From IMG/VR virus record IMGVR_UViG_2541047862_000007: a DNA stretch of 19,570 nt. One strand, 5' to 3'. Below the pieces are notes generated by a model. It saw only the letters and a list, made by a program, of their open reading frames with translations, was not told the origin of the DNA and searched no databases. Position numbers and translations under genes: made by a program. Shown in pieces: positions 14,990 to 15,532 of this stretch (positions within the stretch are counted from its first letter, which is position 1; each line of letters begins with the position of its first letter). The DNA is from a virus. Lineage: Duplodnaviria; Heunggongvirae; Uroviricota; Caudoviricetes.

Positions 14990-15187
14990 ATGTCTAGCGG
15001 AAACACAAACAACAAATCAGCAAAGAAAAATATTCGATTCCCGCACGAGCTTATAGATGGGATTGATGCCAGTGTTGAACAAGAAAAATTAACTAATCCT
15101 AGTGCTAATTTTTCCGCATGGGTCTTAGATGCCTGTGGACGCAAATTAAAATATGAACAGCGCCGGAAGGCCAAAGAGCAGGAGTAA
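14990..15187 (+). CDS. Arc/Mnt-family ribbon-helix-helix transcriptional regulator, 65 aa
   Basis: GAGG Shine-Dalgarno 7 nt upstream of the ATG; NIRFPHELIDGIDASVEQ...SANFSAWVLDA matches the Arc-type strand-helix-helix pattern (N-L-R-W-P-x-E-[LV]-[LI]-D). Confidence 0.65.
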   Translation: MSSGNTNNKSAKKNIRFPHELIDGIDASVEQEKLTNPSANFSAWVLDACGRKLKYEQRRKAKEQE

Positions 15188-15244
15188 CCATCACCAGCGC
15201 CGTGGTGCGGTGAACTGTGGCGCACAGGGTTACAGGTATCTACG

Positions 15245-15442
15245 ATGACTGACAAATCATTAAAGAAATTATCCTCATCCAGGAAAAAACAACGCAAAAA
15301 TGCGGTAAGCGAACAAGAACAGGAAAGATTTGCGCCATGTGCGTTTGTCCTTGAGAAGTTCTTAAAAGAGTACAGGCGCACAAAAATGGAATCGCATACC
15401 TGGAAAACATCGCAGTATGGCGATGCTAAAGAGCAGGAATAG
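15245..15442 (+). CDS. Small basic protein, 65 aa, function unknown
   Basis: Follows the Arc-like gene on the same strand; shares the C-terminal AKEQE residues and a 29-bp 3' repeat with it; weak Shine-Dalgarno. Confidence 0.45.
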   Translation: MTDKSLKKLSSSRKKQRKNAVSEQEQERFAPCAFVLEKFLKEYRRTKMESHTWKTSQYGDAKEQE

Positions 15443-15532
15443 CCCACCAGCAAGCCAGCACACTGATCACATTGCCCACCAGCCGCAAATCTGGCATTGT
15501 TGGCGATGCGTTTGATTTCCTTTGTTCCCACT

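Follow-up and report, generated by a model that had tools for sequence, protein, structure and literature searches.

Two small genes in a P4-type satellite island

The window analysed here is a stretch of 19,570 nucleotides recorded in IMG/VR as a caudoviricete virus (IMGVR_UViG_2541047862_000007), and it is an Escherichia coli satellite island of the type of P4 and the phage-inducible chromosomal islands (PICIs), located at tRNA-Gly. Within its control region lie two small genes, ylcI and a gene that we call P2, whose products share their last residues, together with a short direct repeat that spans the ends of both. The two open reading frames (ORFs), at 14990–15187 and 15245–15442 on the plus strand, encode 65 amino acids each, are closed by AKEQE and a stop codon, and share a frame, with one TAA and 19 sense codons between them. 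An earlier reading made from the letters and their ORFs (hereafter the sequence-only reading) had noted these tandem genes ending in AKEQE and a repeat across their last codons and stops, which ORF translations and a pattern search bear out.

The first gene, ylcI (14990–15187, plus strand), encodes a YlcI/YnfO (DUF3950) ribbon-helix-helix (RHH) protein and putative island repressor. The protein matches the YlcI profile NF041551 well above its curated cutoff (59 bits against 30, E 3.5e-16), PF13132 more narrowly (28.3 against a cutoff of 25), and PHROG 949 (E 9e-28). Its AlphaFold2 (AF2) model (predicted local distance difference test score, pLDDT, 75) combines an extended N-terminus with a pair of helices, in agreement with a strand-helix-helix fold, and the closest folds include many RHH antitoxins (TacA, ParD, VapB, HicB and MazE); a Foldseek search of the model against the Protein Data Bank gave no useful match. 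The gene is under strong purifying selection, with 99 synonymous and 10 nonsynonymous differing codons in pairwise comparisons of six loci of the same type, one of them from Edwardsiella. A basic tail, EQR(K/R)K(A/P)KE, is found family-wide among YlcI proteins across Enterobacterales, and the AKEQE end is therefore native to ylcI, which makes ylcI the donor of the shared end. The ylcI 3' end gave no exact match when its pattern was scanned against species-representative genomes, and a protein-pattern scan returned three loci only (in E. ruysiae, Citrobacter and Edwardsiella), in all of which P2 is absent and a terminator stands directly 3' of ylcI.

The second gene, P2 (15245–15442, plus strand), is an accessory gene for a helical protein with a basic N-terminus (PHROG 21027, E 1.9e-44), and all of its homologues are from Escherichia. 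A conserved core, ERFAPCAF.LEKFLKEYRR, is common to these; their N-termini come in alternative forms, and their C-termini fall into two classes. Across the P2 region, substitutions number 471, 449 and 694 at the first, second and third codon positions of the plus frame, and amino acid replacements in that frame are as conservative as those of ylcI (mean BLOSUM score 0.02, against -1.18 in the antisense frame); given this third-position excess and these conservative replacements, P2 looks like a real gene. No family match was found for P2 in Pfam, NCBIfam or PADLOC, and its AF2 model, of low confidence (pLDDT 66), shows one helical hairpin. In some homologues (P0037 and P0038) the basic N-terminus is swapped for RVILRIASELGMTAEQFAEQ..., which looks like a helix-turn-helix (HTH), while the LEKFLKEYRR...AKEQE half is kept, so that P2 is itself modular.

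The repeated gene end

A degenerate 20-mer, GCYAAAGAGCAGGARTARCC, matches the plus strand of the window twice (15170–15189 and 15425–15444), where 0.01 matches were expected from 200 shuffles. The two copies are identical at 17 of 20 positions and lie 255 nt apart, which replaces the 254-bp unit given previously. The 29-bp direct repeat of the sequence-only reading is present, its 29-mers starting at 15173 (one base before the 15174 that had been given) and at 15428; a length of 29 bp requires that two 2-nt indels be tolerated. Copy 1 (15173–15201, plus strand) consists of the final four codons of ylcI, TAA and CCATCACCAGCGCC, and copy 2 (15428–15456, plus strand) of the final four codons of P2, TAG and CCCACCAGCAAGCC. 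Only the first 17–20 nt match without gaps, and the remainder (CC[AT]CACCAGC against CC--CACCAGC[AA]GCC) needs both indels; aligned past the stops, copy 1 reads CCATCACCAGCGCC where copy 2 reads CC--CACCAGCAAGCC. Common to both are about six last codons, the stop and about 15 nt 3' of it.

Copy 2 sits in a 39-nt segment (15425–15463) that is missing from P2 variants with the other C-terminus. In islands without P2, the copy-2 sequence and its tail lie directly 3' of ylcI, and the repeat is thus a true homology rather than a chance resemblance. The copies differ in the same way across all loci (GAGTAACCAT... against GAATAGCC...), which argues against selection for identity or for pairing.

The repeat region also holds Chi octamers. 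One, GCTGGTGG (15444–15451, minus strand), lies within copy 2, and copy 1 holds a one-mismatch form of it, GCTGGTGA; a second (15476–15483, minus strand) stands 32 nt beyond the first, in the conserved tail ATTGCCCACCAGCC. At least one Chi is retained at the repeat and tail in nearly all related loci, and the octamers could promote exchange there. The 19.6-kb window contains 12 Chi sites in total, nine of them on the minus strand, a density well above the E. coli average.

Distribution of the repeat and evidence for recombination

DNA related to the control region is present in 1,712 of 5,426 complete E. coli genomes, about a third, and junction-specific BLAST queries with coverage thresholds distinguished three states of the locus among the 5,426 genomes. 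The window state (S-alpha: ylcI, copy 1, the 57-nt spacer, the P2 body, copy 2 and the tail) occurs in about 192 genomes. A second state (S-beta), in 863 + 314 genomes, is like the first except that P2 ends in ...QRTEPD or ...ERTKSD and the 39-nt segment with copy 2 is absent. In the third (S0; 91 genomes) P2 is absent and a single hybrid copy at the end of ylcI is joined to the tail. The P2 core was found in about 1,218 genomes, and the repeat pair in ~14% of P2-bearing genomes, being absent in about 86% (192 against 863 + 314).

These states are related in a simple way. When the 255 bp between the copies of an S-alpha locus (L008) are removed in silico, 524 of 540 ungapped positions agree with an S0 locus (L002). 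The hybrid copy of the latter is copy-1-specific to the left of an 11-nt identical core, AAAGAGCAGGA, and copy-2-specific to its right. Many blastn alignments to other islands start at about position 15158 of the window, just upstream of copy 1, and all combinations of YlcI types with P2 types occur in related loci.

The copies are homologous, the pair is polymorphic, and the states with and without P2 differ by an exact deletion. We consider it probable that duplication of the ylcI 3' end gave rise to the repeat, which flanks an optional cassette at a mosaic junction and is not an RNA-type control element. In one subset of islands, P2 would have come to end in a copy of this 3' end, carried along with some 20 nt beyond it that include the Chi octamer, and the two copies would frame a 255-bp P2 cassette as direct repeats. 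The cassette could then be lost by recombination or slippage in the 11-nt core, or gained by the reverse event. The conserved ylcI 3' end would serve as the left breakpoint at which modules of ylcI and operator reassort with modules of P2 and tail, so the repeat would be both footprint and substrate of mosaic recombination, rather than an RNA or protein-binding element required twice.

Several points weigh against this interpretation. The genome counts rest on BLAST coverage thresholds, and some genomes carry several islands. The 11-nt identical core is short for RecA-dependent exchange, and deriving S-alpha from S-beta needs an illegitimate in-frame join, for which reconstruction found no simple junction.

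Is the repeat part of a regulatory RNA?

A repeated cis element with a regulatory-RNA role, of the kind used by P4, was one of the explanations offered by the sequence-only reading. On a model of P4-type RNA immunity, the two copies would act as seqA and seqC, pairing with a CI/C4-like RNA in the regulatory transcript to cause premature termination, and a complementary small RNA would target AAAGAGCAGGA or CCACCAGC. The position is suggestive, and the expectation that the region is homologous to the P4 immunity region proved correct: the two correspond in position, the long antisense ORF of the island (see below) ends in the Icd-like domain of P4 Eta, and the CI and seqA RNAs of P4 sit within the Eta ORF.

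The RNA elements themselves, however, were not detected. Rfam searches found neither C4/CI (RF01695) nor isrK in the whole window at the gathering threshold, in 14300–16000 at E ≤ 10 (where the hits were at chance level) or in three related loci (L011, L008 and L002), whereas in P4, the positive control, C4 (8420–8507, 74.9 bits) and isrK (8615–8692) were both found above the gathering score. No reverse-complement partner of the 20-nt repeat with up to three mismatches was found on either strand of the window. Fold energies around both copies, on both strands, were no better than those of shuffled sequences (z from -0.31 to +0.51, not significant), and only the stretch containing the terminator reached a z of -1.75. 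On the minus strand, moreover, both copies are situated upstream of P_L, the putative internal promoter, and would thus be absent from P_L transcripts. Conservation in related islands, the test set beforehand by which the idea might fail, was not found, with the pair in 192 genomes, P2 without the pair in 863 + 314 and the hybrid in 91; the pair is thereby missing from most P2-bearing genomes. The regulatory-RNA reading is not supported, and we regard RNA immunity through these repeats as extremely unlikely.

Why two different proteins share an ending

The other explanation offered beforehand, a partial tandem duplication, holds for the last six or so codons, the stop and about 15 nt, and no further: hhalign aligns only the last seven columns of P2 and YlcI (probability 1.8%), and BLASTP gives no alignment. 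A duplication of the whole gene, with P2 a highly diverged ylcI paralogue that kept only its C-terminal end, could account for the equal length of the ORFs (65 amino acids), their shared frame, their 255-nt distance and a resemblance by eye of FSAWVLDA to CAFVLEKF. It sits poorly, however, with the near-absence of protein similarity, with the lack of a YlcI family match for P2, with the absence of the shared end from most P2 variants, and with the distribution of the two genes, as P2 was not found outside Escherichia while ylcI is widespread. A second short match near the N-termini (15012–15028 against 15252–15268, 15 of 17 positions) could be counted in favor of paralogy, but it does not track across island types, since ylcI and P2 types reassort, and we take it as chance between Lys-rich, A-rich codons. 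Paralogy thus appears quite unlikely.

Alternatively, AKEQE could be a signal under selection, for partner binding or proteolysis for instance, which P2 gained for co-regulation or competition with YlcI. The basic and acidic tail is indeed conserved at the protein level in YlcI of many genera, and the P2 copy is in frame with few changes in about 192 genomes. Conservation is nonetheless equal in the non-coding ~15–20 nt past the stop, which points to descent of the DNA rather than selection on the peptide; most P2 proteins have other endings, and some second-copy variants end in EEQK or KEQG. We judge a functional peptide unlikely, and a duplicated gene end bordering a cassette remains our preferred explanation for the shared ending.

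The spacer between the genes (15188–15244, plus strand) measures 57 nt in all nine P2-bearing loci. We rejected a ylcI-P2 fusion by stop-codon readthrough: the two genes are always in frame across this spacer, but three of the nine loci have an extra in-frame stop in it. Directly 3' of the ylcI stop is a hairpin (15188–15215, plus strand; CAUCAC...GUGGUG) whose pairing is kept through C-G, U-G and U-A changes (L004 and L006). It is not a terminator, as no U-run follows it.

Putative operators and the transcription unit

YlcI may act on a promoter of the neighboring replication genes. The putative leftward promoter of the icd-primase operon, P_L (14893–14921, minus strand), has a -35 element TTGACA (14916–14921), a 17-nt spacer and a -10 element TTAATC (14893–14898); it was read from the sequence and was not called by a strict consensus promoter scan. 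Two TGTGCGCACA palindromes (14883–14892 and 14906–14915), which are putative YlcI operators, lie one within the P_L spacer and the other just downstream of the -10, and a third, imperfect copy, TGTGTGCGCCC (14951–14961), covers the putative -10/+1 of the ylcI promoter. In every island and operator type a -35 of TTGAC(A/G) or TTGAAG occupies the same place, followed by the spacer palindrome, an A/T-rich -10 and the second palindrome. The palindrome sequence varies with YlcI type (TGTGCGCACA here, elsewhere GTGTT[A/G]AACAC, GTGTC[C/G]GACAC, GTGGGCCACAC or GTGTATTTCAC), and this co-variation was seen in five or six island types with promoter positions unchanged. From this pattern we infer that YlcI represses both the icd-primase operon and its own gene in a type-specific manner, acting through the palindromes. 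The spacer sequence TGTGGCGCACA, considered as an additional operator, was rejected because it does not track YlcI type.

An RHH gene followed by a small gene is the typical order of type II toxin-antitoxin pairs, and RHH antitoxins are numerous among the folds closest to YlcI, so YlcI might neutralize P2 as a small toxin, with the repeat incidental. P2, however, matches no toxin or defense family in Pfam, NCBIfam or PADLOC and is optional, with ylcI alone in many islands and in other genera; the 57-nt spacer has weak translation signals, and the putative operators lie on the promoter of the replication operon. A toxin-antitoxin function is very unlikely on this evidence.

The ylcI-P2 unit ends in an intrinsic terminator (15533–15560, plus strand; GGCGACC..GGTCGCC followed by TTTGTTTT), whose stem shows compensatory changes across related loci and which has no T-run on the minus strand. 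On that strand, the conserved leader of the Icd-like gene (14785–14860) comprises a G+C-rich hairpin, UCUAACCACCA and a small hairpin (CGAUA...UAUCG) that abuts the Shine-Dalgarno sequence. Some compensatory changes in the leader were seen between island types, covariation by RNAalifold was weak, and no Rfam family matched.

A long antisense frame kept open

The whole ylcI-P2 unit lies antisense within an eta-like ORF of 345 codons (14581–15618, minus strand), which starts at an ATG (ATGTGTAA) overlapping the stop of the upstream BRO-N gene and preceded by GGAGG. It crosses the terminator, P2, the spacer, ylcI and the promoter and operators, and ends in the Icd-like gene. The latter, a nested Kil-like gene of 67 amino acids (14581–14784, minus strand; NF033153, E 1.5e-18), is in frame with the long ORF.

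This minus frame runs free of stops into the Icd-like gene in 14 of 14 loci, with constant phase relative to ylcI, and in a separate comparison for the eta/kil module the long frame and icd shared their reading frame in 10 of 11 loci. Over 5,207 nt without other genes, the long frame contains three stops, against 122 and 121 in the other minus frames and 55–65 in each plus frame. In most other architectures, too, a coupled in-frame ATG coincides with the upstream stop codon or closely follows it, with a weak Shine-Dalgarno sequence in L006 and L011. In the tail, spacer and leader, variation falls evenly on the three codon positions of the long ORF (20/20/20, 10/8/10, 10/10/9 and 12/13/12), and thus the frame is kept open while its protein sequence is not conserved. 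The indels of the region are all multiples of three (255, 39 and 18 nt) and the spacer is constant at 57 nt, in keeping with the position of the unit inside an ORF that is kept open. Selection keeps this ORF open, perhaps for its translatability.

Annotation of the Icd-like gene is inconsistent, its start varying between records and the Prokaryotic Genome Annotation Pipeline (PGAP) giving products of 67–134 amino acids or "partial" pseudogenes; gene callers at present treat such antisense-open ORFs inconsistently. NF033153 also matches the P4 Eta ORF (8168–8812, overlapping the end of vis) at residues 161–208 (E 1.4e-20). A tblastn search of phages with the Icd-like protein matched one satellite-like record only and not P4, so this NCBIfam profile was needed to recognize the family-level homology with P4 Eta.

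Island context

An 821-nt query (14800–15620) is 100% identical to a chromosomal island beside tRNA-Gly in several E. coli genomes, and gene annotation was taken from the identical locus in NZ_CP122454. Read along the minus strand, the genes are int, a hypothetical gene, an AlpA-type HTH gene, AntA/AntB, BRO-N, then (past ylcI and P2 on the plus strand) the Icd-like gene, another hypothetical gene, DUF4222, a DUF927 primase, SSB, ProQ/FinO, PerC and four large uncharacterized genes. Beside a tRNA, int and alpA are thus followed by a Bro zone and then a replication zone, and this succession of integration, Bro and replication zones agrees with the published organization of Gram-negative PICIs and P4 (PMC10111431).

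An int-alpA RNA motif (RF02996, 18244–18311, minus strand; 46.9 bits against a gathering score of 35.8) separates int from the genes downstream of it and precedes the AlpA-type gene. A gene for a ProQ/FinO-family RNA chaperone (10733–11230, minus strand; PGAP, identical locus) could be relevant to the overlap of sense and antisense RNA in the control region. The four large genes form an operon (2005–9666, minus strand) for proteins of 843, 686, 925 and 104 amino acids, with starts and stops that abut or overlap. None of the four had a Pfam or PADLOC match at E ≤ 1e-3, and capsid, packaging or helper-redirecting genes were not found among them; this operon, at the usual late or packaging position of PICIs, is a candidate for an uncharacterized defense or cargo system. 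At the left edge of the window is an ORF for an IS110-family transposase (1–1197, minus strand; DEDD_Tnp_IS110 and Transposase_20), unannotated in the otherwise identical NZ_CP122454 locus.

A proposed protein switch

By itself, the repeat is a recombination footprint of an ordinary kind. It accounts for the coming and going of an accessory gene between similar islands, and the duplicated end explains why two unrelated small proteins finish alike. The surrounding architecture is the more interesting result, given its unusual coding arrangement: the island looks like a P4 eta/kil scaffold in which an antisense protein-repressor unit replaces the RNA immunity elements. The global repressor of Gram-negative PICIs was described as unclear in 2018 (PMC6092414), and our literature search found no published role for the ylcI-P2 unit and no paper on YlcI as such a repressor. 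YlcI and its putative operators offer a concrete candidate that can be tested.

We tentatively propose, as a possibility somewhat short of even odds, that a protein switch has replaced CI and seqA of P4 at the same position. This switch would consist of a type-specific RHH gene, ylcI, with or without the repeat-flanked P2, antisense in an eta-like ORF selected only for translatability; YlcI would be the "missing" master repressor of Gram-negative PICIs, and read-through of the eta-like ORF would flip the switch. In the quiescent state YlcI would repress P_L. Induction would bring AlpA-dependent transcription from upstream, which would escape Rho because it is translated across the eta-like ORF; this convergent transcription would collide with that of ylcI and reduce it, and lower ylcI expression would in turn derepress P_L. 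To our knowledge, an RHH repressor gene with a repeat-flanked accessory gene, antisense in an open but protein-unconstrained eta-like ORF, has not been described before.

Comparison with known systems

YlcI resembles the RHH repressors and antitoxins (Arc, Mnt, CopG, omega, ParD and TacA) in its predicted strand-helix-helix topology and in having several short palindromic operators, putative in its case, over promoters. It differs in that sequence similarity is marginal and that the YlcI family has a basic C-terminal tail of its own (RRKAKEQE).

The P2 cassette is comparable to the direct-repeat cassettes of lambdoid phages and satellites, as genes end in short conserved boundary sequences, the presence/absence polymorphism is exactly that expected of the recombination product and flanking modules reassort. 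Here, however, the boundary codes in two genes, giving both the same C-terminus, holds a Chi octamer and must stay open in the antisense frame.

Among Gram-negative PICIs, EcCICFT073 (PMC6092414; zones in PMC10111431) has the same arrangement of ylcI, P2 and Icd-like gene (L011). Int, alpA with the int-alpA RNA motif, the Bro zone (AntA and BRO-N) and the replication zone (DUF4222, DUF927 primase and SSB) are likewise shared with this group. The late zone differs, with four uncharacterized genes in place of capsid or packaging genes.

Another close parallel in organization is the left operon of the phage-plasmid P4, for which the available account describes control through vis, nested eta and kil, and CI RNA with seqA and seqC (Forti et al. 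1999, via PMC10111431). The island differs from P4 in lacking CI/C4 RNA, the isrK/seqA element and the Psu, Sid and Delta genes; its ORF instead carries an antisense transcription unit (ylcI, the optional P2 and a terminator) and putative palindromic operators on the internal promoter, and BLASTP similarity between P4 Eta and the window protein is marginal (E 0.22). Both have the order int, AlpA/Vis-type HTH, a long ORF whose start meets or overlaps the upstream stop codon, and primase. In both, the long ORF ends in an Icd-like domain with a short in-frame nested gene of about 65–67 amino acids and has a promoter inside it (the putative P_L here), and the icd-like leader occupies the place that CI RNA has in P4. 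In P4, according to the same account, it is translation of eta that prevents termination (PMC10111431), and an island ORF that stays open without conservation of its protein fits such translation-dependent antitermination.

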